Of a stretch of DNA of 64,000 nucleotides, positions 1,133 to 57,530 are shown piece after piece (the first letter of the stretch is position 1; every line of letters begins with the position of its first letter). A program made the translations under genes and the position numbers. The DNA comes from an uncultured Gammaproteobacteria bacterium (GTDB lineage: Bacteria; Patescibacteriota; Microgenomatia; UBA10105; UBA927), in the NCBI GenBank assembly GCA_964361785.1, contig CAYIBX010000001.1, positions 5,857 to 69,856 of the forward strand. Direction: 5' to 3'. The notes beneath the pieces were generated by a model. It saw only the letters and a program-made list of their open reading frames with translations. It was not told the origin of the DNA and searched no databases.

Positions 1133-2733
1133 AAGTTAGCTATATCCTACTTGGGATTATTGTCGTTCTCGCAGCGTGGCTTAGACTAACAAATCTTACC
1201 TCTAATCCGCCAGCGCTTTCATGGGATGAAGTATCTATAGGCTACAACGCGAATACTATTTTATCTAAAGGTACTGATGAGCATGGTGTGCGATTTCCTC
1301 TTGGAGCTTTTGCCGGATTTGGTGATTACAAACCATCACTTCCTATTTATCTTACCGTTCCTTTTATCGCAGTTTTTGGTTTGTCTGATTTGGCAGTTCG
1401 GTTGCCCTCTTCCATTTTTGGCATACTGACGGTGTTGTTGATGTATTTTCTTGTGAAAGAATTATTCTCCAATCAAAGACTTGCTCTTTTAAGCGCCTTA
1501 TTTTTGGCTATCTCTCCGTGGCACATTATGCTCTCTAGAACTGGATTTGAAGCAAATATTGCAGCATTTTTTGTTACACTTGGCGTGTATCTTCTATTAG
1601 TTTCACGAAAGAATTCAAACGTATTGCCTTTCGCCTTTTTGCCATTCGTCTTAGGCATGTATACGTTTAATTCAGCACGGTATGCAGGACCTCTTATCGC
1701 TTTTGGAGTGCTCTGTTTTTCGTGGGGTGCAATTTCGAAAGCGAAAACTTCTCTTTATAAAGGATTGATTATCGCAGCAATTGCTTTACTGCCGCTTATG
1801 CCGCATCTTGTTTCGAAAGAAGCCAGACTTCGGTTTCAAGAGGTAAGTATTTTTACAGATCTTCAAGTCATACTTACTTCAAACCAACGAAGTCTGGTAG
1901 ATGGAAATTCGTGGTGGTCCAAAGTCGTTGACAACAGGCGATTTGGATATGGCAGAGAATATCTTGTGCATTTTTTGGATAACGTAGAACCTCGATTTCT
2001 TTTTATCAAAGGGGATGGAAATCCTAAATTTTCTATTCAGGATACAGGACAATTACTGCTTGTTACCGCCCCGTTTATTTTTATCGGATGGTTAGCGCTT
2101 TTTGCGCGTCAGCCGAAAATAGCAGGATTGCTTCTTTTTTGGCTGTTGGCTTCCATTGCACCAGCAGCAGTTGCTCGTGAAACGCCACATGCTCTTCGGG
2201 TGGAAAATGGATTGCCGGTATGGATCATCATTACGGCATACGGATATGTACAGTTTCTGAGTATGTTTGCCGGCAAAAAGCTGCGGTTATTCGTTGGTAT
2301 TGTCATGGTTCTTTTAGTGCTTGGAAACTTTGGTTATTTTTGGCATACGTATACGACACATTATAAAAAAGAATATTCAGGCGAATGGCAATATGGGTAC
2401 AAAGAAGCTATTGAGTATAGCGAGAGTGTGAAAGAAAAGTATGACGTGATAGTACTCACAGAGAGCCTCGGCCGGCCATATATCTACACGCTTTTTTATG
2501 GAAAGTATGACCTTTCATTTTTCCAAACCACTAAAGATGCCTCGTTTGATAAAGAGGGATTTTATAATGTTTATCGGTTTGGCAAATATCGATTTGTACG
2601 ACACATAAACGAGAAGTATGAGGGTCGCGTGCTCTATATACTCCCAATAAACGAAGTCCCAGAGAATGCAAAAGTCTTAAAAAACATTTCGCTATTAAAT
2701 GGCTTTATCGGGCTTGTGATATTTGAGTTATAA
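1129..2733 (+). CDS. GT39-family (PMT/ArnT-like) polyprenyl-phosphate-sugar-dependent membrane glycosyltransferase, paralog 1
   Basis: 534 aa multi-TM protein. N-terminal loop has 'WDEVSIGYNANT...GTDEHG' (DE motif), then 'ISPWH' and 'ARETPHALR', which are typical of GT39/PMT. It is the first of three tandem paralogs. Confidence 0.7.
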   Translation: MKVSYILLGIIVVLAAWLRLTNLTSNPPALSWDEVSIGYNANTILSKGTDEHGVRFPLGAFAGFGDYKPSLPIYLTVPFIAVFGLSDLAVRLPSSIFGILTVLLMYFLVKELFSNQRLALLSALFLAISPWHIMLSRTGFEANIAAFFVTLGVYLLLVSRKNSNVLPFAFLPFVLGMYTFNSARYAGPLIAFGVLCFSWGAISKAKTSLYKGLIIAAIALLPLMPHLVSKEARLRFQEVSIFTDLQVILTSNQRSLVDGNSWWSKVVDNRRFGYGREYLVHFLDNVEPRFLFIKGDGNPKFSIQDTGQLLLVTAPFIFIGWLALFARQPKIAGLLLFWLLASIAPAAVARETPHALRVENGLPVWIIITAYGYVQFLSMFAGKKLRLFVGIVMVLLVLGNFGYFWHTYTTHYKKEYSGEWQYGYKEAIEYSESVKEKYDVIVLTESLGRPYIYTLFYGKYDLSFFQTTKDASFDKEGFYNVYRFGKYRFVRHINEKYEGRVLYILPINEVPENAKVLKNISLLNGFIGLVIFEL

Positions 2734-2735
2734 CA

Positions 2736-4361
2736 ATGAAAAAAACATTATTGCTCGGATCAATTCTAATTCTTGCTGCGGTGCTGCGATTTTGGCAGTT
2801 AGGCGCCGTGCCGCCAAGTCCTGATTGGGATGAAGCAGCATTAGGGTACAACGCGTATTCACTGCTTACTACTGGCCGCGATGAGTATGGTACGCATTGG
2901 CCACTTGCTTTACGATCATTTGATGATTATAAGCCTCCGCTCTATGCATATTTAGCAATACCATCCATTAAAGTTTTTGGTCTTTCTCTTTTTTCCGTGA
3001 GACTGCCTGCCGCAATTATGGGTGTTTTAGGCGTCTTGGGGACATATTTTTTAGTGACCTTTTTGTTTAAAAATTTGACACTTGGACTTTTGAGCGCGAT
3101 TCTTTTGGCCATATCGCCATGGCATTTACAATTTTCGCGTATCGCATTTGAAGCAAATGTTGGGGTGACCCTCAATATTTGGGGCATGTATTTTCTTTTT
3201 AAGTCTTTAAACAATGGCAAGGTGATGCCAATTTCTGCTTTTATTTTAGGACTCGGGTTTTACGCGTATCATAGTGAGAGAGTATTTATACCCCTTTTTA
3301 TTCTTTTGGTGTTCGTGTTGTTTAGTAAGAAGTTTTTCGCAAAGTGGAAATATTTTTTAGTATCTCTCGGAGTAGGTGCTATTATCGTCGCTCCATTATT
3401 TCCCATTGTTTTCGGAAACAATGGCCTTACCCGGCTGAAAGGAACCAGTAGCCTTTCCGATCAGACGGGTCTACTTTCTAAAAGTGTAGCTAGGTTAGAA
3501 GACGATGTAATACGCGGGGATTTATTTGGCGCCATGTGGGAAAACAGACGCTTGGTGTATGTCAAGACTATTGCAGATGGATACCTCTCACATTTTTCTC
3601 TCAAATGGTTGTTTTTGACGGGGGACAATGGGCGACATCATGCGCCTGATATGGGCCTTATGTATCTTTGGGAATTGCCATTTTTTCTTTGGGGCATGGT
3701 GGAGGTGTTTAAACGCGGCGGTGTCAATGCAAAATTACTTTTTGGATGGCTTCTGTTAGTCCCTGTCGCTGCATCTGTCACTTCAGAGACTCCTCATGCG
3801 ATACGAACACTTGTAGCACTGCCTTTGCCGCAAATTTTTACTGCTTTTGGTCTCTTTAGCGTCTATATCAATTTTATGAAGAAGATAAAAAATCTTACAA
3901 AGAATATGCGTGTGGTTGTTTTCGCTATTTTCGTTTTTAGTTTTTTGGCTTTAGTATTTAACATCGGTTATTACTTTCATATGTACTACTCGCACATGAA
4001 CATCGAGTATTCTCAAGTTTGGCAATATGGATACAAACAAGCAGTCGAATACACAGAGGCGCATAAATCAAAGTATAAGAAGATAGTTGTGTCTACGAAA
4101 TTAGAACAACCGCACATGTTCTATTTATTTTTTATGAAATATGATCCCAGCTTCTATTTAGCTGGAGGCGGCACGGCGTCGGGTGGATTTGCCGAGGTGA
4201 GAAACAGATTTGATGTGTATGAATTTCGGCCTATTCACTGGCCGAATGAATTGCACGACGGCTCGATTTTGTATGTAGGAACACCGCGGGAAATTCTTAC
4301 AGATCCCATATACAGAATTTCATTTCTTAATGGGTTCGAGGCGATACGAATTGCAGAGTAA
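2736..4361 (+). CDS. GT39-family membrane glycosyltransferase, paralog 2
   Basis: 541 aa. Shares 'DWDEAALGYNAYS...GRDEYG', 'ISPWH' and 'SETPHAIR' with its neighbours. Confidence 0.7.
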   Translation: MKKTLLLGSILILAAVLRFWQLGAVPPSPDWDEAALGYNAYSLLTTGRDEYGTHWPLALRSFDDYKPPLYAYLAIPSIKVFGLSLFSVRLPAAIMGVLGVLGTYFLVTFLFKNLTLGLLSAILLAISPWHLQFSRIAFEANVGVTLNIWGMYFLFKSLNNGKVMPISAFILGLGFYAYHSERVFIPLFILLVFVLFSKKFFAKWKYFLVSLGVGAIIVAPLFPIVFGNNGLTRLKGTSSLSDQTGLLSKSVARLEDDVIRGDLFGAMWENRRLVYVKTIADGYLSHFSLKWLFLTGDNGRHHAPDMGLMYLWELPFFLWGMVEVFKRGGVNAKLLFGWLLLVPVAASVTSETPHAIRTLVALPLPQIFTAFGLFSVYINFMKKIKNLTKNMRVVVFAIFVFSFLALVFNIGYYFHMYYSHMNIEYSQVWQYGYKQAVEYTEAHKSKYKKIVVSTKLEQPHMFYLFFMKYDPSFYLAGGGTASGGFAEVRNRFDVYEFRPIHWPNELHDGSILYVGTPREILTDPIYRISFLNGFEAIRIAE

Positions 4362-4366
4362 AAGGC

Positions 4367-6010
4367 ATGTCTATGTTTAATCGTACATATTTAGGTTTCA
4401 CGTTCATTTTACTTTTTGCAGCGTTTTTGCGGCTTTATGCATTGGCTTTCGTGCCGCCTTCACCTTCTCTTGATGAAGTTTCCATAGGCTACAACGCATA
4501 TTCCATACTTACGACGGGCAAAGATGAGTATGGGTATAGATTGCCGCTTCTTCTTCGCGCGTATGATGATTGGCGCCCTGCGCTGTACGTATACATGGTC
4601 ATCCCGTTTGTAAAATTAATGGGTCTTTCATCTTTAGCTGTTCGATTTCCGTCTATAATTTTGTCGCTTTTTGCTGTGTATCTGATGTTTCGTCTCGGCA
4701 AACTTTTTTCGCGGTTTAACAGTCGATTACGATACTTAGGTGAGGCGGCATCGTTTTTTATAGCAATATCGCCGTGGCATATTTATATTTCCCGTTTAGG
4801 ACATGAAGCGAATTTAGGATTTACGTTAACGCTTGCGGGAGTGTATGCACTGTGTGTGTTTATTATAGAAAAAAAACAATGGTATCTTTTGTGGGCATCA
4901 ATATTGTTTGGCGCCTCACTTCATGGGTACCAAAGTCAAAAAGTTATTACACCAATTCTTCTTATAGCATTTGGCGCAATGTATTGGAAAGAATGCGTAA
5001 AACATATAAAAGCGGCGTGTCTATCAGTATGTGTATTTCTTCTTATTGTACTTCCTGCCGTGTATGTAACGGTTACCGGAGAGGGATTGAGCAGGCTTAA
5101 AGGTACGAGTGCATTCTCTGTCGATGCCCCAGTGTACACACAAGCGTTTCAAGCCTTACAAATTGCAAAAAGTTCTAACGACGTTATAGGAAAGATAATA
5201 AATAATCATAAAGTAGTTATGGCAAGAGTTTTTACCAATAATTACTTTTCTCATTTTGCCCCACCATGGTTATTTATGGGAAGCGAACGGGAAGCTCATA
5301 AAGTGCCGAATATGGGCCTTTTGTATTCATGGGAATTGGTAAGTGTACTTGTGGGGCTTATTTATCTTATTGTTTTTAGCAGTATAGATTTTCGTGTATT
5401 GCTTTTTTTATTGGTGTGGGGACTTTCAGGCCCATTGCCCGCCGCGATTACAACCCAAGCTCCACACGCCATGCGTAGCTTTACATGGCTTCCTCCATTG
5501 GCGCTTATCAGCGCTATTGGTGTGTTGGAATTATGGTATGTCGCAAGAAAAATTACATGGACGCGCTGGATTATCGTAGGAGGAATTATTTTATTAAGCC
5601 TCATGCAATTTGGAAAAGGGTATTTTATAACGTTTCCTCGTACACAATCAGATTCGTTTCAGTATGCCATGAAAGATACGATGGCTTTTGTACAGGGAAC
5701 GAAAAATGAATATAAACAAATTGTCTTTTCAAATAACAGCAATTTGTATCAGTCGTATATGTTTTATCTTTTTTATACCTCGTTTGATCCTAGCCGTTAT
5801 CAAACGCTCGGCGGCAGTGTGTCAGGCGGATATGACAAGCCGCATACGATTAAGAATTTTGAATTTCGCTCAATAAACTGGTCTACAGAAGTGCTCAAAG
5901 CTGATACGCTGTATATTACTGATAGTAAAGAGGCGCCTACGCGAAAACGCGTGGTAAATATATTTAAGAATCTTGACGGGAAAGAAGCAATTATTGCATT
6001 TACCTTATGA
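4367..6010 (+). CDS. GT39-family membrane glycosyltransferase, paralog 3
   Basis: 547 aa. Carries 'LDEVSIGYNAYS...GKDEYG', 'ISPWH' and 'TQAPHAMR'. Its stop overlaps the next start (ATGA). Confidence 0.7.
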   Translation: MSMFNRTYLGFTFILLFAAFLRLYALAFVPPSPSLDEVSIGYNAYSILTTGKDEYGYRLPLLLRAYDDWRPALYVYMVIPFVKLMGLSSLAVRFPSIILSLFAVYLMFRLGKLFSRFNSRLRYLGEAASFFIAISPWHIYISRLGHEANLGFTLTLAGVYALCVFIIEKKQWYLLWASILFGASLHGYQSQKVITPILLIAFGAMYWKECVKHIKAACLSVCVFLLIVLPAVYVTVTGEGLSRLKGTSAFSVDAPVYTQAFQALQIAKSSNDVIGKIINNHKVVMARVFTNNYFSHFAPPWLFMGSEREAHKVPNMGLLYSWELVSVLVGLIYLIVFSSIDFRVLLFLLVWGLSGPLPAAITTQAPHAMRSFTWLPPLALISAIGVLELWYVARKITWTRWIIVGGIILLSLMQFGKGYFITFPRTQSDSFQYAMKDTMAFVQGTKNEYKQIVFSNNSNLYQSYMFYLFYTSFDPSRYQTLGGSVSGGYDKPHTIKNFEFRSINWSTEVLKADTLYITDSKEAPTRKRVVNIFKNLDGKEAIIAFTL

Positions 6011-7530
6011 AAAATTTTCATCACCGAAATACGCGCCGGTATGTACTACTACTTATTATCATTATCCTCATTGGATTATTGCCAAGAGCGGTAGAGATCT
6101 TAAGCGGTAATTTTCTCTTTGGGTACGATATGGGACTGTTTTTTGAGAAGGTTAAACGTATTGTCGTTGATCATACGTTTACACTCATCGGTGAAGAGGT
6201 TGGCGGGAGGGGAGGATTTTTTCAAGGTCCGGGATTTTATTATCTTTTGGCTATTCCATTTTTCTTATCCGGTGGTGATCCGTATAGCGGGATGGTGCTG
6301 ATGTTTTTGACTGGATCAGCAACACTTATTCTGACAGCGGTGCTTGCCGCTCGGGCCTTGGGATGGATAGAGGCGTTGTTTATTGTTTTTCTTATGGCTG
6401 TTTCGCCTGCGATGGTGGCGCAATCCCGCTTTATATGGAATCCTTTTTTTATCCCATTGATAACCGTTGGCGTATTATTTCTTTTTTATGAAGTTCTCAA
6501 AAAGAAAGAAATTACGCTTCCAGCACTATTTTTGAGTCTTTCAATGATGTTTCATTTTGAAATAGCTACGGGCATTATGATGTTTTTGGAATTTTCTATC
6601 TTCACCGCGTATCTATGGCGTGTGCGCATGGTGCGTGGAAGGTATGTATTGGCTGCGTATGCAGCATTTTTCCTATCTCAAATTCATTTTGTTTTGTTTG
6701 ATTTGCGTCACGACTTTCTTATCACCAAAGGTATTCTAGCCACGGCATTTGGCAAAGATCCCTCTTCCCACAATGTTACCTTGTTATACGCACAGCGTAT
6801 GATTGAGAATCACTGGGATGTGTTTCGGTATAATTTTTTATCTACTTTCGCGTATTCAAATGTAATTTGGCCGGTGTTACTCGTGTTGGTCGGGGTTGGT
6901 GCATATGCCATGATACGGGATAAGCATGTAGATGATGCGCATAAAAAGTTTCTTGTATTTTTGTGTATTTCGCCAATTGTTATGTTTGTTTTATATATGA
7001 AATATCTTTGGCCGATGTGGGAGTGGTGGTTATTGGAGCTGGGTGTTGTTTATATATTTGTGGTTGGACTCGTTTTTTCATGGGGGTGGAAGCGAGGTAG
7101 CATATGGAGGGGAATTGTCGCTATACTTACATGCTTGTTTCTTTTTTCGCATATAAACTCAACGATTCAGTTTTATCGATTAGACTATCACGATTATGGC
7201 GGCACGCATAAAATTCGAGGAAAAATAGATGCTATAGATTCAATCTACCAAGATGCAGCCGGTAAACCATTTAATCTTCTTGTATTTACGCCGCCCGTAT
7301 ATACATATCCGTATGATTATTTATTTTGGTGGCATGGAAAGAGAAAATACGGGTATGTACCAACAAAAGAAAAAAAAGATACGTTCTATCTTCTTATTGA
7401 GCCAGATCCACAAAAGCCATGGAGTTATGAAGGCTGGCTTGAGACAGTTATTAAAACCGGCACAGTAGAGAAAACTTGGAAATTACCGAGCGGATTTATT
7501 ATTGAAAAAAGAGTGGAGATGTCTCCATGA
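6007..7530 (+). CDS. Polytopic membrane protein, putative GT-C-type glycosyltransferase
   Basis: 507 aa with more than 10 hydrophobic segments. It is in operonic overlap with the GT39 genes upstream and the YfhO-like gene downstream. Confidence 0.45.
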   Translation: MKNFHHRNTRRYVLLLIIIILIGLLPRAVEILSGNFLFGYDMGLFFEKVKRIVVDHTFTLIGEEVGGRGGFFQGPGFYYLLAIPFFLSGGDPYSGMVLMFLTGSATLILTAVLAARALGWIEALFIVFLMAVSPAMVAQSRFIWNPFFIPLITVGVLFLFYEVLKKKEITLPALFLSLSMMFHFEIATGIMMFLEFSIFTAYLWRVRMVRGRYVLAAYAAFFLSQIHFVLFDLRHDFLITKGILATAFGKDPSSHNVTLLYAQRMIENHWDVFRYNFLSTFAYSNVIWPVLLVLVGVGAYAMIRDKHVDDAHKKFLVFLCISPIVMFVLYMKYLWPMWEWWLLELGVVYIFVVGLVFSWGWKRGSIWRGIVAILTCLFLFSHINSTIQFYRLDYHDYGGTHKIRGKIDAIDSIYQDAAGKPFNLLVFTPPVYTYPYDYLFWWHGKRKYGYVPTKEKKDTFYLLIEPDPQKPWSYEGWLETVIKTGTVEKTWKLPSGFIIEKRVEMSP

Positions 7531-9149
7531 AGAAACTATCTTTTAACTGGTTTATCTGGCTTATACTTCTTATTGTTTCGCTACTACCTCTTTTTGACTT
7601 GTTTAATTCAGGATTGCCCATAACGCATGATGGCAAAGATCATGTCGCAAGGATTGCCAATTTTTATCAATCTCTTTCTGAAGGTAACTTTGTTCCGCGA
7701 TGGGCTGGTAACCTTAACTGGGGATATGGGCATCCGGTGATGATGTTTTTGTATCCGTTGCCCTCTTATATTGCGTCAGCGTTTCATGTAATCGGATTTT
7801 CATTGGTCGATAGTGTCAAGCTTGTTTTTGCATTTGGATTTATTGCAAGTGTTGTATCTATGTATCTGTTTGCCTCATATCGTTTTGGCTATTTAGCTGG
7901 GATTCTTGCAGCATTGCTCTATGGTTTTGCTCCTTACAGGTTTGTGGATATGTATGTGCGCGGGGCAATTGGTGAACATATGGCGTTTATTTTCCTGCCA
8001 CTTGTTCTTTTAGGTTTATGGCAATCATCTATCGTTCTCATCGCAATGAGTATGGCCTTTTTACTTCTTTCTCATAATGCGGTGAGCTTGATGATGCTTC
8101 CTATCATAGCAGTATTTGTGGTGTACCTACTGGTTTTTGAGTCGAAGCGAAAACGGGAATTTCTTTTTAGATCTCTGACCGGTTTAATCCTAGGATTTGT
8201 CTTGTCTGCATTTTTTTGGTTGCCGGCCTATATGGAAGGCAAATACACACTGCGAGACATAGTAACCAAAGGCGAATTTACTTCACGGTTTGTTAATGTA
8301 GCTGATTTTTTCAACCCTACTTGGGGATATGGCACGGCAAATGAAATATCAAAGTTTTTGGGGTTTTCAAACATTTTTATTTTATTGTTAGCTCTGGTTC
8401 TTTTTCATTCGATGAGAAAGCCGTCAAAAGTACTGATTGGCGGCGCGTTGCTTTATACAATAGTATCTCTCGTATTAATGACTAATGTATCAGCGCCTGT
8501 TTGGCAGATAGTTTCGCTCATTCAGAAATTTCAGTTTCCGTGGAGGTTTTTACATGTCACGACGTTTCTGATTCCTATCATCGGGGCAGTTGTTGTTTCA
8601 CATATTGACATCAAGCGAAGGTTAAAAGTTGTCATAGTTTTTTCTGTTATCGCTATTATCGGTAGTTTTTCGATGTGGCATGCAAGAGATTACGTATCGA
8701 TGTCTGACAGTAATTTTACCGGTATGTATAATGGCACTACGGATACAGGAGAGAGCTCACCGATCTGGTCTATTCGTTTTATGGAAACGAAAGCCAAAGC
8801 TCCTATCGAAGTGATCAGCGGAAAAGGCGTGTCGATCTTTGTTGGCCCACGAAGGAGCACACATCATTCATATCGTGTCTTTTCGTTAGAATCTACGAAG
8901 CTTGTAGAAAATACACTCTATTTTCCCAATTGGGAGGTGTTTGTAGATAAAACACCTGTCCCTATAGAATTTCAAAATCCTAACTATCGTGGCTTACTGA
9001 CATTTGATGTCCCTGCAGGGGATCATGCAGTTGATGTTGTGTTTACGGACACCAAGCTTCGTATATTGGCCAATTGGATTTCAATCGGAGGATTTATGCT
9101 CACAATTGGGTTTCTTGTTACAATGCGATTATGGCAAAAAAGAACGTAA
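7527..9149 (+). CDS. YfhO-like GT-C membrane glycosyltransferase, paralog A
   Basis: 540 aa multi-TM protein with N-terminal 'HDGKDHVARI...PRWAGNLNWGYGHP', 'FVDMYVRGAIGE', and a C-terminal extracytoplasmic beta-domain ending 'YFPNWEVFVDKTPV'. This tail resembles the YfhO family tail 'PGWKAYVDGK'. Paralog of 11556..13202. Confidence 0.55.
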   Translation: MKKLSFNWFIWLILLIVSLLPLFDLFNSGLPITHDGKDHVARIANFYQSLSEGNFVPRWAGNLNWGYGHPVMMFLYPLPSYIASAFHVIGFSLVDSVKLVFAFGFIASVVSMYLFASYRFGYLAGILAALLYGFAPYRFVDMYVRGAIGEHMAFIFLPLVLLGLWQSSIVLIAMSMAFLLLSHNAVSLMMLPIIAVFVVYLLVFESKRKREFLFRSLTGLILGFVLSAFFWLPAYMEGKYTLRDIVTKGEFTSRFVNVADFFNPTWGYGTANEISKFLGFSNIFILLLALVLFHSMRKPSKVLIGGALLYTIVSLVLMTNVSAPVWQIVSLIQKFQFPWRFLHVTTFLIPIIGAVVVSHIDIKRRLKVVIVFSVIAIIGSFSMWHARDYVSMSDSNFTGMYNGTTDTGESSPIWSIRFMETKAKAPIEVISGKGVSIFVGPRRSTHHSYRVFSLESTKLVENTLYFPNWEVFVDKTPVPIEFQNPNYRGLLTFDVPAGDHAVDVVFTDTKLRILANWISIGGFMLTIGFLVTMRLWQKRT

Positions 9150-54692: not shown

Positions 54693-55541
54693 TTGATGAT
54701 GCAACAAATTCCAGTGGACAAATTTATAGAGAAATATCGAGTGGACAATCCAGACGTGATTGAAACGCTCAAAAAATTTCCGGTACTAAGTTACTTATTG
54801 GGTTCAGTATCAGAAAAGACATTTGAAAATAATAGAACTGTCACAGAAGGGTCGGCAATGTTTGGGCTGACAAATCCTCAAGATGCAATGCGATGGAAGG
54901 GAATATTTACTCATATCACCGGAGCTTCAAGGCATGTCTATTTTTTGAGTGATAAAATAGCGCATGCGACACCTACGCAAAAACAAAAATTACTTGCATG
55001 AGGGTATACCCAAACATCATTAACATCTCTTGATCCTGATCTTCTTCGTGATCATAAACTTGTCGATCATGCGGGACGAAGACAAATGGATGAATTAGGA
55101 TGGCATGATGTGCGCGACGCTGCACATCCGTCAACGTATTCTTCAGAAAATACGCTGGCATTATTAGAGCGAAATGGGGCTGATCCATATTTTCTTCACC
55201 ATATGAAGGAAGAAGATCACGCGTATCTTTTCTCTCGAGGAAAAAGTGGTCGATTGAAAGATATACAGTTTGCAGTACTCACCTATGGTGATTGGACATT
55301 TGATCAAAAATCCGTGAGCCTCCATGATCGGTTTGTAGGTTTGCGATCACGAAATCGTGCTGACAGGGCAACGCTTGATAGGCTAGAGCATCTAGGGCAA
55401 ACTTTTGAATCGGATTTACAGCATGTGTTTGGCGATTCAATTATCCATGAAATGATGGAATTAAAGCCGTTTGCATGGGAAGAAAAAATGAAAAATGCAT
55501 ATGCTTCAAGTGCAGGATTGCCAGTTTCAATTTTTGTTTAA
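54693..55541 (+). pseudogene. Hypothetical (HD-domain-like?) gene interrupted by an in-frame TGA at 54999-55001
   Basis: ORFs 54693..55001 and 55086..55541 are in the same frame, separated by a single TGA. Local GC is visibly higher than the surroundings. Confidence 0.45.
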
Positions 55542-55786
55542 TGCTTTGCGAGTGTAGCGAGTGTTGCCGCAACGGATGGGTTATTGATAGTCTGTAATGT
55601 CACCCTGTCACCAAATCGTTTTTGAAGAGGAGTTAAAAATTCATCTGCCCATGAAGGAGTCAGCACCACGACGCCCTCAAAATCTATGCATATTTTATCA
55701 AATCTATGCAAATCTATGCAATAGTAGATTTGGAATATTCGAATAAATCTGATTAAAAACCTTATGATACAATGCCTGTATGGCAA
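55538..55786 (-). pseudogene. Degraded DUF4325 (STAS-like)-domain gene remnant
   Basis: The C-terminal 45 aa 'IDFEGVVVLTPSWADEFLTPLQKRFGDRVTLQTINNPSVAATLATLAK' fit the DUF4325 consensus. The N-terminal 35 codons are read across the 11-mer repeats and are implausible. Confidence 0.4.
55677..55731. repeat. Three direct copies of (a)aatctatgca plus an inverted partial copy
   Basis: Read directly: tcaaaatctatgca ...tcaaatctatgca aatctatgca atagtagattt. Confidence 0.7.
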
Positions 55787-55830
55787 AAAAGATGGTAAGT
55801 GTGGTCACTGAGGGGGCTGGGTTTATGGGG
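55757..55830 (+). repeat. Left ~74-bp direct repeat: ghost copy of the UXS promoter/5' end, flanking the TA cassette
   Basis: 'ccttatgatacaatgcctgtatggcaaaaaagatggtaagtgtggtcactgagggggctgggtttatgggga' is about 85% identical to 56511-56584 and encodes a 19-aa stub, MAKKMVSVVTEGAGFMGIK*. Confidence 0.7.
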
Positions 55831-55864
55831 ATAAAATAGTGATATACTTAAAGAGGATAGTTAT

Positions 55865-56155
55865 ATGGTAAATAATACGATTGATCAGATAAAGGTTAAA
55901 GCAGTACCTATTCTTATGAGAGCGGGCGTGACTCGCTCTTCTATTTATGGTTCATATGTACGAGGCGAGCAAAAGCAAGAGAGTGATATTGATTTACTTG
56001 TTGATGTACCGCGAGGAACGAGTCTATTTGATTTAGCGGATTTACAAATAAAGCTTGAAGAGGCGCTTGGTAAAAATGTTGATCTTGTTACCTATGCATC
56101 AGTACATCATCTTTTGAAAGATCGAATTATGGCTGAACAAATAGGCATATTATGA
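55865..56155 (+). CDS. Nucleotidyltransferase-domain antitoxin (MNT/MntA-like)
   Basis: 'GSYVRGEQKQESDIDLLVD' matches the GSx9-13DxD motif. 96 aa. Overlaps the partner gene by 4 nt. Confidence 0.8.
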   Translation: MVNNTIDQIKVKAVPILMRAGVTRSSIYGSYVRGEQKQESDIDLLVDVPRGTSLFDLADLQIKLEEALGKNVDLVTYASVHHLLKDRIMAEQIGIL

Positions 56156-56490
56156 ACAAAGATTACTTTGTTTTTCTCAATCATATAGTGGAAAGTATTA
56201 CTGTTATTGAAGAGTATATACGTAATTGTTCGGAAGAAGAGTTCATGCGATCCCAAGAGAAACAGGACGCGGTGATTCGCAGACTGGAAATCATAGGAGA
56301 AGCAGTCAAAAATATTCCTCAGGAATATCGAGATCAGCATGTGGAAGTTGCCTGGAACAAAGCTATGGGAACGCGAAATATTCTCATTCATCACTACTTC
56401 GGTATTGATATCACAGTCGTGTGGGATACGGTGATAAAAAGTTTGCCTGAATTTAAAAATCAAATTCTTCAATTGCTGAATGAAAAGTAA
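56152..56490 (+). CDS. HepT/DUF86 HEPN-domain toxin
   Basis: 112 aa. The Rx4-6H motif is 'RNILIHHY'. Confidence 0.75.
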   Translation: MNKDYFVFLNHIVESITVIEEYIRNCSEEEFMRSQEKQDAVIRRLEIIGEAVKNIPQEYRDQHVEVAWNKAMGTRNILIHHYFGIDITVVWDTVIKSLPEFKNQILQLLNEK

Positions 56491-56510
56491 TTATAGGAAT
56501 TTTATATATA

Positions 56511-56584
56511 ATCCTTTGATATAATACGCCTATGGCAGGAAAAATGGTAAGTGTAGTCACAGGTGGGGCTGGGTTTATAGGGAG
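56511..56584 (+). repeat. Right ~74-bp direct repeat (authentic UXS promoter/5' end)
   Basis: 'cctttgatataatacgcctatggcaggaaaaatggtaagtgtagtcacaggtggggctgggtttataggga'. Confidence 0.7.
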
Positions 56585-57530
56585 TAATTTAGTGAATAAA
56601 CTCCTTGACTTTGGGCATACGGTCATAGCTGTCGATAATTTAATTACTGGTAGAGTTGAAAACCTCACCGAGGCAATACGTAACTCTCAATTTTCTTTTA
56701 TTCAGGCAGATGTTATAAAAGGCTTGCCGGAGATTTCCGATGTCACGCATGTGTGGCATTTGGCTTCCCCCGCATCGGTTGAAGGGTATCAAAACAATCC
56801 TGAAGAAACAGCGCTGGTCAATTCGGTGGGGACTAGAAATGCGCTTATCTTTGCTAAAGAGCACAATACTCGGCTTATTTATACCTCAACCAGTGAAGTA
56901 TATGGAGACCCAAAACAACATCCGCAAAAGGAAACGTACTGGGGGAATGTGAATCCTAATGGCGTGCGAAGTTGCTACGACGAAAGCAAACGATACGGCG
57001 AAATGATGACCCTGCTTTATCATACAAAACATGGCGTAGACACAAGAATTGCGCGGATATTTAATACGTATGGTCCGAATATGAAAGCGAACGATGGACG
57101 CGTGGTATCTAACTTTATCAATCAAGCGCTTGTTCATAAACCACTGACTGTCTATGGCGACGGACTACAGACGAGATCTTTTTGCTATGTGTCGGATCAG
57201 GTGGCCGGCCTTATTTCTTTGATGGAAAAAGAGAAGGCAAACGGGGAGGTCGTTAATATAGGAAATCCTGAGGAGTATACGGTGATTGATTTAGCCAAAA
57301 AGATTATTTTTCTTACCAATAGTACGTCAGAGATTGTCTATTCGAAACTTCCATCAGACGATCCGGTGAAAAGATGCCCTGATATTACCAAAGCCAAAGA
57401 ATTATTAGATTGGGAGCCTGTCGTTTCTGTTGACGAAGGATTGAAGAAAACTATTGTCTACTATAGACAACAGTTAACACCCGCCTGCAAACGCCTGAGC
57501 GTAGCGATGGCGGGCAGGGTTAACAGTTAA
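56532..57530 (+). CDS. uxs: UDP-glucuronate decarboxylase (UDP-xylose synthase)
   Basis: 'VVTGGAGFIGSNLV...TSTSEVYGDPKQHPQKETYWGNVNPNGVRSCYDESKRYGE...RIARIFNTYGPNM' is the UXS/ArnA-C signature. Confidence 0.85.
   Translation: MAGKMVSVVTGGAGFIGSNLVNKLLDFGHTVIAVDNLITGRVENLTEAIRNSQFSFIQADVIKGLPEISDVTHVWHLASPASVEGYQNNPEETALVNSVGTRNALIFAKEHNTRLIYTSTSEVYGDPKQHPQKETYWGNVNPNGVRSCYDESKRYGEMMTLLYHTKHGVDTRIARIFNTYGPNMKANDGRVVSNFINQALVHKPLTVYGDGLQTRSFCYVSDQVAGLISLMEKEKANGEVVNIGNPEEYTVIDLAKKIIFLTNSTSEIVYSKLPSDDPVKRCPDITKAKELLDWEPVVSVDEGLKKTIVYYRQQLTPACKRLSVAMAGRVNS

Follow-up and report, generated by a model that had tools for sequence, protein, structure and literature searches.

Probable insertion of a promoterless MNT/HepT toxin-antitoxin cassette with a long target duplication in a small clade of groundwater Patescibacteria

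How chromosomal toxin-antitoxin (TA) modules move is an old question; most are not on recognisable mobile elements. The question is raised by a single locus in a 64,000-nucleotide stretch of DNA, called the window here. The original prediction held that an MNT/HepT TA pair had been inserted into the 5′ end of a UDP-xylose synthase gene (uxs), between two direct repeats of the promoter and first codons of that gene. Our analysis indicates that the cassette was probably inserted with a long target duplication in the common ancestor of a small groundwater Patescibacteria clade, and that the left of the two promoter copies would drive it. The locus is laid out as follows:

55746–55849, plus strand: left target copy, with the uxs promoter and the decayed first ~23 codons, attached to the ancestral upstream flank
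55850–56497, plus strand: inserted cassette, ~647 bp, comprising the Shine-Dalgarno sequence AAAGAGGA (55850–55857), MNT, HepT and 7 nt
55865–56155, plus strand: putative antitoxin, an MntA-type MNT (nucleotidyltransferase) of 96 aa (PF01909, 1.6e-13)
56152–56490, plus strand: putative toxin HepT (HEPN RNase) of 112 aa (PF01934, 1.2e-27)
56498–56602, plus strand: right target copy, with the promoter and first ~23 codons of intact uxs
56532–57530, plus strand: uxs, encoding a UDP-glucuronate decarboxylase (UXS)-like extended SDR of 332 aa, intact (PF01370/PF16363)

Alignment of the two target copies gave direct repeats of ~105 nt each, 77% identical overall and 85% identical in the coding part, so that the duplicated unit spans roughly −35 to +70 relative to the uxs ATG and is longer than the ~74 bp first proposed. 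An ungapped search paired 55746–55831 with 56498–56583 (86 nt, 76%), and gapped blastn paired 55746–55848 with 56498–56602 (106 columns, 77.4%, E 2e-16), the similarity running beyond the stop codon of the left-hand stub to 55849 with two 1-nt indels (GATAAAATAGTGATATACTT vs. GAGTAATTTAGTGAATAAACT). The repeat placed earlier at 55757–55830 and 56511–56584 does exist, in a register that was 2 nt off (the offset is 752, not 754). Its ~85% identity applies to the coding part (44/52) and not to the 74-nt stretch, which at offset 752 is 77% identical (57/74). MNT and HepT lie between the copies as stated, in an insert of ~647 rather than ~670 bp.

Since a glycine-rich motif is conserved in all SDRs, the resemblance could be due to chance (a Rossmann GxxGxxG motif together with an AT-rich promoter), or the structure could stem from mis-assembly. 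The precise alignment places the similarity far above background: the local alignment score of the copies is 54, compared with 12.0 ± 2.0 in 2000 shuffles, none of which exceeded 23. Against the stub, the window's two further SDR paralogues score 13 and 17 at their 5′ ends, which identifies the stub as a copy of uxs specifically and not of a shared Rossmann motif. Similarity also extends through non-coding DNA, and the same structure recurs in diverged relatives and in assemblies made independently from several runs (ERZ1292640, ERR3858116, ERR3858118, ERR3858133), so it is no assembly artefact. Chance and mis-assembly are refuted on these grounds and retain next to no probability. Other long direct repeats in the whole window (≤6 kb apart) are paralogous gene segments only.

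The two cassette genes are on the same strand with MNT upstream, and the HepT start overlaps the MNT stop by 4 nt (ATGA). The MNT product carries the GSX10DXD motif (GSYVRGEQKQESDID) and the HepT product the RX4HXY motif (RNILIHHY), as these are defined for MntA and HepT (PMC7641770). The overlapping gene order and both motifs are shared with the type VII TA system HepT/MntA of Shewanella oneidensis (SO_3166/SO_3165; Yao et al. 2020, PMC7641770). In that class HepT is a toxic RNase neutralised by MntA through AMPylation of the motif tyrosine, and the same activities are predicted here. Unlike that system, the present pair consists of short proteins (96 and 112 aa) without a promoter of their own, whose matches to the NCBIfam models NF047752 (MntA; 6.8e-13, 48.4 bits) and NF047751 (HepT; 2.4e-13, 50.0 bits) both fall below the cutoff of 60; they are accordingly treated as Pfam family members and not as equivalogs of the characterised proteins.

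The target gene is likewise assigned by family. Its product contains an NAD-binding GGAGFIGS sequence (GxxGxxG) and the catalytic motif YDESK (YxxxK). Its best solved relatives are human UXS1 chains (6e-99, vs. 2e-41 for the next family), and NCBI gives homologues at 67–68% identity the name “UDP-glucuronic acid decarboxylase family”. No UXS-specific NCBIfam model matched above its cutoff. The sequence features together place the target in the UXS family, with a predicted UDP-glucuronate decarboxylase-like activity.

If the cassette was inserted, related genomes should retain the site without it, and the empty site proposed as a test was found. Single uxs 5′ ends without MNT/HepT occur in four relatives, L010 (82% identical in UXS), L011 (78%), L013 (78%) and L012/L094 (83%). 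Closer relatives, L006–8 (90%) and L009 (89%), have filled sites whose left copies have decayed in different ways. All empty-site relatives thus stand at 78–83% identity in UXS, with no same-species empty allele found, and a scan of metagenomes for UXS added one more close relative (L094, equal to L012), the remainder being ≤68% identical. Empty sites fit both loci that never received an insertion and loci that lost one by exact deletion from repeat to repeat; the direction of change is assigned by parsimony. The left copy runs into the upstream flank known from the empty site L094 (GAATAAATATGGTCAAAAACCTTGTGATACAAT) and the right copy into the gene body, as target duplication predicts for each.

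The same end structure would result if uxs or its 5′ end had first been duplicated in tandem and a cassette had later landed between the copies or replaced most of the first of them, in which case the repeat would not stem from the insertion, and the presence of several SDR paralogues in this glycan locus lends that order of events some plausibility. Such intermediates were sought among relatives. The 61 related uxs loci include no tandem uxs and no stub without a cassette; the latter had been named beforehand as the finding that would count against insertion, and the 57 more distant loci among those compared have neither a cassette nor a second 5′ copy. Repeat-cassette-repeat structures moreover recur at unrelated targets for MNT/HepT, AbiE and HicAB modules (below), and duplications that had occurred earlier and independently should not keep coinciding with cassettes. 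We therefore regard a prior duplication as improbable.

Three further features lie upstream of the left copy:

54693–55541, plus strand: upstream neighbour, orthologue of a 308–311-aa gene, broken by an in-frame TGA at 54999–55001
55538–55700, minus strand: 3′ remnant of a DUF4325 (STAS-like) gene (PF14213, 1.1e-7, residues 26–70 of an 82-aa ORF)
55680–55741, no strand assigned: a triplicated AAATCTATGCA and, after it, the palindrome AAATCTATGCAATAGTAGATTT, directly 5′ of the left promoter copy

The codon of the upstream neighbour that reads TGA in the window is TTA (Leu) in L007 and L010. In L010, a fully empty relative, this gene is followed by uxs 35 nt later. The DUF4325 remnant is extra DNA between the upstream neighbour and the uxs promoter, and a homologous remnant is found in L007 (4355–4471). 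The region with the AAATCTATGCA triplet and the palindrome is conserved in L009 and L006–8 and absent from the empty site L094.

Divergence among the filled sites indicates the age of the event. Between the window and L007 or L009, dS is 0.38–0.60 for the TA genes and 0.45–0.51 for uxs, and dN/dS is ~0.1 for MNT, HepT and uxs alike, from which we infer a single old gain followed by vertical descent. On these sequence comparisons the duplication is ancestral to the small clade and not recent. A search with HepT for a recent donor found close matches in the same lineage alone (100% and 88%), the next being ≤70%, and a search of GTDB species-representative genomes gave none closer than 65%. The GC content of the cassette (36.8%, vs. 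39.6% for the window) is uninformative as to foreign origin.

The distribution of promoter elements bears on how the cassette is expressed. The relevant elements are:

55765–55773, plus strand: extended −10 box in the left copy, TGATACAAT, read from the sequence, 6 nt 5′ of the stub ATG
55780–55839, plus strand: stub ORF, MAKKMVSVVTEGAGFMGIK and a stop codon, 19 codons, a relic of the uxs start
56517–56525, plus strand: promoter box TGATATAAT of the right copy, followed by 6 nt and the uxs ATG

The cassette supplies just 15 nt 5′ of MNT, which amount to the Shine-Dalgarno site and include no promoter; other members of the family carry 70–180 nt of their own DNA upstream of MNT. L009 (TGATACAAT) and L007 (TGATATAAT) have kept the left-copy −10 box, giving the consensus TGATAyAAT, 6 nt, ATG, which is retained in all three lineages. 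The stub ORF, by contrast, has been lost in two of the three, through an internal deletion in L009 and in L006–8 through replacement by an unrelated ~105-nt segment with a strong hairpin (z = −3.4). No second occurrence of that segment was found in the window or in the loci then compared. Survival of the −10 box in every left copy, where the stub ORF did not survive, argues that the TA pair, lacking a promoter, is probably transcribed from the duplicated host promoter, and the proposal that the duplication had given the module a copy of the host promoter gains indirect support from the conserved box and from the lack of a promoter in the cassette.

The stub itself was read correctly at the outset. 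Its N-terminus is identical to the start of L011 uxs (MAKKMVSV). The 19-codon ORF is still intact in the window, running from the predicted transcription start to 25 nt short of MNT, an arrangement that would suit a leader peptide or upstream ORF under selection for regulating the TA operon. The ORF is gone in L009 and L006–8, and the TA genes there are still under purifying selection. A functional stub is very improbable on this evidence; the peptide is not conserved, and by comparison of the lineages the 19 codons are debris.

Sharing of a promoter by the TA cassette and uxs, a further suggestion of the original prediction, is supported only indirectly, by these two observations and by a scan of 55400–56800 that found no terminator-like site between HepT and uxs. 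A sigma-70 scan of the same interval called neither −10 box, since it demands a −35 match, and the promoter-like sites it reported were no commoner than in shuffles. Rfam searches of the window region and of the L007 intergenic region gave no meaningful match (one miRNA at E 0.34).

What kind of event produces such a structure can be judged against known modes of insertion. Transposons and IS elements also leave a direct target duplication around the insertion. Their duplications are 2–15 bp, vs. ~105 bp here, and no transposase or terminal inverted repeats were found at the locus or at the cassette ends; an IS or transposon origin was rejected on the length of the duplication and the lack of inverted repeats.

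Integrative elements and cis-mobilisable elements that undergo Campbell-type integration and tandem accretion are bounded by attL/attR repeats. Direct repeats around an insert at a gene end are indeed typical of integrases, and arrays with a repeat between successive inserts, such as that at L038 (below), resemble tandem accretion, so that the repeats could be attL and attR sites bounding a small non-autonomous element that relies on a tyrosine or serine recombinase acting in trans. In the window, however, no integrase, transposase or tRNA lies within ±6 kb of the cassette. There is no common att core. The repeats consist of ordinary ends of host genes, wholly different from one locus to the next, and range from 65 to 273 nt, varying even within L038. 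The junctions of seven repeat-flanked cassettes share no end motif, and neither an attC-like nor any other RNA/DNA structure family was detected. Site-specific integration of this kind, or from an integron, is extremely improbable.

The closest counterpart is insertion with long target duplication, described for restriction-modification (RM) systems (Nobusato et al. 2000, Gene 259:99; Furuta, Abe & Kobayashi 2010, PMC2853133) and recognised by repeats >30 bp, a single-copy match at an empty site and an insert <20 kb without a mobility gene (PMC2853133). At the uxs locus the repeats are ~105 nt (77% identical), relatives at 78–83% in UXS have the single-copy match, and the 647-bp insert holds MNT and HepT only, with no mobile element. 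The RM insertions resemble it in being small complexes free of mobility genes, with direct repeats of variable length from tens to hundreds of bp, a single-copy empty site in a related genome, a target gene that stays intact and an addiction module as cargo. Their repeats often span translation starts or stops of the target (PMC2853133), and most known cases are in naturally competent bacteria. Three differences set the present locus apart. The cargo is a TA pair with a predicted RNase toxin, so DNA breaks made by the cargo do not apply, and without R and M gene homologues in the insert, which the screen of Furuta et al. (2010) required, it falls outside the class as defined. The duplication would also provide the promoter for a promoterless cassette, and the repeats are old (77%) and not near-identical. 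A review by Mruk & Kobayashi ties this mode of insertion to RM systems only (PMC3874152), and in the literature searched we found no case for a TA module. The locus and its relatives thus provide a clean series of filled and empty sites for a TA cassette in a mode documented before only for RM systems.

In the reading we favour, a promoterless type VII TA cassette (MntA and HepT) would have entered uxs ~70 nt into the gene, and the event would have copied ~105 nt of target sequence (about −35 to about +70). The right copy would preserve uxs complete with promoter and start codon; the left copy, on the old upstream flank, would lose its coding part by decay and keep the extended −10 box. Transcription of the TA operon would start from the left promoter at or near the stub AUG, with MNT translated from its own Shine-Dalgarno site, and uxs would be transcribed from the right copy, possibly with read-through from the left. 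Recombination between the repeats could delete the structure, yet it persists, presumably because cells that lose an addiction module are selected against and because divergence has brought the repeats down to 77%. Candidate routes to the duplication are a single crossover with a target-homologous circle, breaks at staggered positions, and replication template switching. As the predicted toxin is an RNase, DNA cleavage by the cargo, an idea put forward for RM systems, would not be required. Locally, the outcome suggests that a promoterless selfish cassette can gain expression by copying a host promoter while the host gene is left intact.

Within this reading, a more specific version of events is that the cassette arrived already joined to a 5′ fragment of uxs, so that the two copies come from different genomes. 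It could have come as a circle looped out of a repeat-cassette-repeat donor and joined by a single (Campbell-type) crossover, or as linear DNA that entered by natural transformation and recombined via homologous flanks. Repeat-insert-repeat is exactly what one crossover with a target-homologous circle yields, and natural competence is known in Saccharibacteria (PMC10633639). Some cassettes are closer to one another than their surroundings are: between L007 and L009, dS is 0.08–0.23 for the TA cassette and 0.58 for uxs, and the cassettes of L014 and L016 are 97% identical beside a neighbouring gene at 87% and unrelated upstream DNA. In L007, AbiEi/AbiEii is flanked by repeats of 80 nt (92.5%) and 128 nt (84%) in the layout A-B, AbiE, A′-[771 nt]-B′, which is expected from a crossover in A with a circle bearing contiguous A-B. 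In the window, the right copy matches its counterparts in L007 and L009 at 89–90% identity, and the left copy resembles its own right copy (79%) about as closely as it does the uxs 5′ end of L011 (78%), so that the repeat by itself cannot prove that the two copies originated in one genome. Against this version, the upstream flank of the left copy is resident (L094-like), leaving one foreign copy at most; 105 nt is too short to place either copy on a tree; and the origin of the first association between cassette and target is left unexplained. We consider homology-driven arrival possible but rather unlikely.

A survey of further loci showed that the structure is not confined to uxs. Direct repeats scoring ≥50 bits and 65–273 nt long flank 6 of 59 other MNT/HepT loci compared with 1 of 140 controls (p = 0.003), in a small survey whose controls were displaced windows and not matched gene pairs; this suggests that about 1 in 10 MNT/HepT loci still shows flanking repeats. 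The duplicated targets differ by locus (uxs 5′ end, SpoU 5′ end, aminotransferase 5′ end, ruvB 3′ end). An exact parallel is L062, where the promoter and first ~16 codons of a SpoU methylase gene are duplicated. On the Saccharibacteria contig L038, HicAB, MNT/HepT and AbiE are arrayed with copies of the ruvB 3′ end between them, the repeats at this one site being 112, 184 and 221 nt, and its relatives L174 and L175 have empty sites. The array suggests that different TA modules can accumulate at one gene end.

These observations lead us to propose, tentatively and with somewhat more doubt than confidence, that long target duplication is a general, cargo-independent route by which TA modules (MNT/HepT, AbiE, HicAB) settle without a mobile element, especially in Patescibacteria and across phyla. 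If so, each event would regenerate the end of the target gene and the same spot could be hit again, which would account for arrays of TA modules with decaying copies of a host gene end, such as the ruvB array of L038 and the one 5′ of uxs in L007. Host recombination or replication would make the event, which would be visible mainly for addiction modules because deletion from repeat to repeat is lethal with these, and the earlier RM cases would be explained without DNA cleavage by the cargo. Since the toxin would cut RNA, the feature common to both classes of cargo is addiction and not DNA cleavage, which changes the kind of mechanism to be sought. Should the suggestion from the survey be true, the movement of TA modules would become testable by genome-wide counting and by transformation in competent bacteria.

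The uxs promoter itself shows one further peculiarity. The layout of −10 box, 6 nt and ATG, without a Shine-Dalgarno sequence, is present in all seven uxs orthologues compared (7/7), and from this spacing uxs is probably translated from a leaderless mRNA. Leaderless-like sites (TAnnAT, 6 nt, ATG) are too scarce in the window for a genome-wide habit to be claimed; they include one more TGnTACAAT site, at 9131.

The insertion upstream of uxs lies in a glycan-synthesis gene cluster ordered along the + strand of a 77.7-kb contig from the Hainich groundwater metagenome (assembly ERZ1292640), and an NCBI protein entry identical to its HepT is labelled "Patescibacteria group bacterium".

Features of the locus, in order along the window
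Gene without assigned function, + strand, first in order, interrupted at 54999-55001 by an in-frame TGA (relatives' version, 308-311 aa)
Between this gene and the AAATCTATGCA repeats, opposite strand: 3' remnant of a DUF4325 gene
55680-55741: three copies of AAATCTATGCA, then the palindrome AAATCTATGCAATAGTAGATTT, 40-100 nt upstream of the left promoter copy
55746-55849, + strand: left repeat copy
55850-56497, + strand: cassette of 647 bp encoding MNT and HepT
56498-56602, + strand: right repeat copy, with the promoter and start of intact uxs
56532-57530, + strand: intact uxs, 332 aa, extended SDR

Among solved structures, human UDP-glucuronate decarboxylase (UXS1) is closest to the uxs product (6e-99, vs. 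2e-41 for other SDR families). The cassette encodes the nucleotidyltransferase MNT (96 aa; PF01909, 1.6e-13) and HepT (112 aa; PF01934, 1.2e-27), whose reading frames share an ATGA overlap. Both proteins score under the NCBIfam equivalog cutoffs, and the pair has both signature motifs defined for type VII HepT/MntA,(PMC7641770) namely GSX10DXD (GSYVRGEQKQESDID) in MNT and RX4HXY (RNILIHHY) in HepT. The UXS protein also bears a 17-residue C-terminal extension (window 57480-57530; …YYRQQLTPACKRLSVAMAGRVNS) absent from 315-aa homologues; its reading frame crosses a GC-rich hairpin, CCCGCCTGC…GCGGGCAGGG, with GTTAACAG repeats on both sides, and the extension resembles a small palindrome inserted at the gene's 3' terminus.

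The cassette had been described in the original prediction as flanked by ~74-bp direct repeats of ~85% identity. Precise alignment confirmed the repeat and revised its dimensions. The proposed intervals were 2 nt out of register; at the true offset of 752 the 74-nt stretch is 77% identical, and 85% (44/52) applies to its coding part only. An ungapped repeat search gave 86 nt at 76%, and gapped blastn 106 columns at 77.4% (E 2e-16). With two single-base indels, similarity extends beyond the stop codon of the stub up to 55849, so the duplicated unit is ~105 nt long and spans about –35 to +70 relative to the ATG. MNT and HepT do lie between the copies, in 647 bp and not about 670. The 19-codon stub ORF matches the uxs 5' end with a local score of 54 (2000 shuffles, 12 ± 2, maximum 23), and the 5' ends of two other SDR paralogues in the window with scores of only 13 and 17, ruling out a shared Rossmann motif as the source of the similarity. 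The left repeat is a copy of uxs, as had been claimed, and the repeat–cassette–repeat structure is also found in independent assemblies from several sequencing runs.

Comparison of contigs encoding the closest UXS homologues gave both filled and empty sites. MNT-HepT lies directly upstream of uxs in L006, L007 and L008 (other Hainich wells) and in L009 (another study), with UXS 89–90% identical. In L010, L011, L013 and L012 (UXS 78–83%), the gene has a single 5' end and the cassette is absent; only 35 nt separate the upstream gene from uxs in L010, and L012 is 99.86% identical across 6.9 kb aligned to L094, an Illumina assembly. Directly 5' of the sole uxs in L012/L094 is GAATAAATATGGTCAAAAACCTTGTGATACAATGCAATC-ATG, homologous to the window left-copy flank GAATAAATCTGATTAAAAACCTTATGATACAATGCCTGT-ATG, and the L011 gene starts with ATGGCAAAAAAAATGGTAAGTGTA (MAKKMVSV), the same as the stub. 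The left copy therefore keeps both the ancestral position and, on its left, the ancestral flank. A left copy on this flank and a right copy running into the gene are what insertion with duplication of the target predicts, and the filled/empty series and flanks uphold that interpretation. A stub without a cassette, the refuting case named in the original prediction, was found neither in these relatives nor in 57 further, more distant metagenome uxs loci, none of which has MNT/HepT upstream or a second 5' copy (best score 41 bits, vs. 74 here).

The AAATCTATGCA triplet and palindrome are kept in L009 and L006-8 and missing at the empty site L094; this block and the DUF4325 frame, which is read on the opposite strand, overlap, and the block may be an operator or debris. 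Further upstream, the TGA at 54999-55001 (TTA, Leu, in L007 and L010) leaves ORFs of 102 and 151 aa. It is a nonsense mutation; a recoded codon is ruled out, since the stop of MNT is itself TGA. L012/L094 carry an insert of their own in the same intergenic region, with two genes (366 aa and 311 aa; L094:786-2830) and no flanking repeats detected. Such modules thus seem to have a hotspot in the space 5' of uxs. An ORF at L012:3504-3887, in a region that is error-prone in the L012 assembly, has a weak AbiEi_2 match (PF09952, 1.2e-4).

The duplicated unit includes a putative promoter. In all seven orthologues compared, exactly 6 nt separate the –10 box of uxs from its ATG, and no Shine-Dalgarno sequence is present (window 56517-56534; L010:5985-6003; L011:4972-4991; L012:4983-5003; L013:1301-1321), a layout that would be that of a leaderless mRNA. 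A second leaderless-like gene in the window has its ATG at 9131, preceded by TGTTACAAT and 6 nt. Only 15 nt of cassette DNA lie 5' of MNT, comprising the ribosome-binding site AAAGAGGATAGTTAT; six other repeat-flanked MNT/HepT loci have 70–180 nt of their own upstream DNA, with obvious –10 boxes in several. On the most economical reading, the TA operon would be transcribed from the left promoter copy, starting at ~55780, and uxs from the right copy. The 41 nt separating HepT from uxs contain no terminator-like site, so some read-through into uxs is possible. Neither –10 box was called by a simple sigma-70 scan, because the scan demands a –35 match.

The window differs from L007/L009 by a synonymous divergence (dS) of 0.38–0.60 in the TA genes and 0.45–0.51 in uxs, and dN/dS is ~0.1 for MNT, HepT and uxs alike. 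These values fit a cassette gained once, by the shared ancestor, and inherited vertically since then, with purifying selection acting on MNT and HepT. Outside this lineage no HepT exceeds 70% identity, so a recent donor is not visible. The L007 and L009 cassettes (L007:5333-5958, L009:224-849) differ by a dS of just 0.08 (MNT) and 0.23 (HepT), vs. 0.58 for the adjoining uxs, suggesting that the cassette region was exchanged by later recombination, once the lineages had separated. The left copy has decayed differently in the three filled lineages. It is nearly full-length in the window, with the 19-codon ORF kept; L009 lacks ~44 nt, from just past the –10 box through the middle of the glycine-rich motif; and in L006-8 an unrelated ~105-nt segment (L006/L007:5190-5300, L008:1172-1282) has taken the place of the stub's first ~55 nt. 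Within it is a strong hairpin of ~55 nt, CCTTCTAAACCGAGTTAGCCCCGCCTTTGGCGGGACAAACTCAGGTAAGAAGG (fold z = –3.4); the segment has no Rfam match and no further copy in the window or in the loci searched. Loss of the ORF in L009 and L006-8 means that the stub peptide is not under selection. Retained in all three left copies are the final ~23 nt (AGGGAGTAAATAGTGATATACTT) and, further upstream, the part holding the extended –10 box (TGATACAAT or TGATATAAT), and it looks as if the promoter part is under selection.

No integrase, transposase or tRNA gene lies within ±6 kb of the locus, and the cassette has no terminal inverted repeats and no Rfam match. A transposon target-site duplication was rejected, as ~105 bp is far longer than the transposon type. 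The structure matches "insertion with long target duplication", described for restriction-modification (RM) complexes by Nobusato et al. (2000) and extended by Furuta et al. (2010).(PMC2853133) In those insertions, repeats of >30 bp up to about 420 bp both align with one copy at the empty site, no other mobile element is involved, and the target start or stop often lies inside the repeats, leaving the target intact; they occur mainly in naturally competent species, and DNA breakage made by the cargo was suggested as the common factor.(PMC2853133) In a later review, this mode is credited to RM systems alone,(PMC3874152) and we found no TA example in open-access texts. The window shares the repeat and empty-site layout of the RM insertions, but its cargo is a type VII TA pair. 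The original prediction holds overall and describes a real insertion. Within this known type of event it is a new variant, as the inserted cassette is a type VII TA pair, the host belongs to the Patescibacteria, and the ~105 nt of target that were duplicated would also supply the promoter of the pair.

The survey for recurrence drew 59 MNT/HepT loci from species-representative genomes, each with no less than 500 nt of sequence to either side, and compared 500 nt upstream with 500 nt downstream of each pair, alongside 140 displaced control windows. Direct repeats of at least 50 bits flank 6/59 loci vs. 1/140 controls (Fisher p = 0.003, with a small sample and crude control), and repeats of at least 70 bits 5/59 vs. 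0/140; the best inverted match reached 48 bits. The repeat is a piece of a host gene or its flank at every positive locus, and L062 is an exact parallel to the window.

Repeat-flanked MNT/HepT loci
L062:3529-4402, Patescibacteria: TATAAT promoter and first ~16 codons of a SpoU methylase gene; 65 nt, 91%
L044:3336-4630, Chloroflexi: 5' end of a class-V aminotransferase gene, other strand; 273 nt, 88%
L069:789-1929, Omnitrophota: 3' end of the upstream ORF; 162 nt, 96%
L061:3540-4488, Cytophagales: 106 nt, 85%
L014:3512-4596, Patescibacteria: 69 nt, 78%

L014 and L016, from two MAGs, share a 765-bp MNT/HepT unit (L014:3686-4449, L016:730-1485) at 97% identity, with the downstream gene at 87% and unrelated upstream DNA, which suggests recent transfer of the cassette alone.

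Other TA families show the same layout. L007 (Hain_H52, UXS 90%) has an AbiEi/AbiEii pair at 2426-3905 in the same intergenic region, and L038:1606-6639 (Saccharibacteria MAG contig CAZYOI010000009), the sixth repeat-flanked locus of the survey, has three different modules arrayed downstream of ruvB. There, the last ~110–220 nt of ruvB are present four times, parting the modules, and the empty sites L174:6001-7313 and L175:6001-7041 (RuvB 92% and 84% identical) have the next gene directly after ruvB.

Repeats and modules in L007 and L038
L007:2105-2184 and 3936-4015: AbiE repeat 1, 3' end of the upstream gene; 80 nt, 92.5%
L007:2245-2371 and 4778-4905: AbiE repeat 2, intergenic segment; 128 nt, 84%; set broken by 771 nt with a 103-aa ORF and DUF4325 remnant
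L038:2785-3363, – strand: HicAB
L038:3714-4351: MNT/HepT
L038:4775-6072: AbiEi/AbiEii
L038:3451-3623, 4470-4689 and 6422-6533: decayed copies of the ruvB 3' end, one after each module

The repeat-flanked loci are independent events at unrelated targets involving three TA families, an indication that TA modules commonly settle and build arrays by this type of insertion.

As the toxin HepT is an RNase, cleavage of DNA by the cargo could not be what drives the event here. We propose that repeat-flanked insertions would be unstable by nature, since recombination between the repeats removes the insert, and that those seen would be mainly addiction modules because cells losing the module would die. 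The duplication itself could arise if a circular molecule with homology to the target integrated by one crossover. Such an event yields the same repeat–insert–repeat layout and agrees with the asymmetry of the AbiE structure in L007 and with the hints of cassette exchange (L007/L009, L014/L016), but leaves the first association of cassette and target unexplained. Staggered breaks on sister chromosomes could also give the duplication, as could template switching during replication. At one junction in L038, a 71-nt filler from mid ruvB (4360-4430) hints at a patchwork process.
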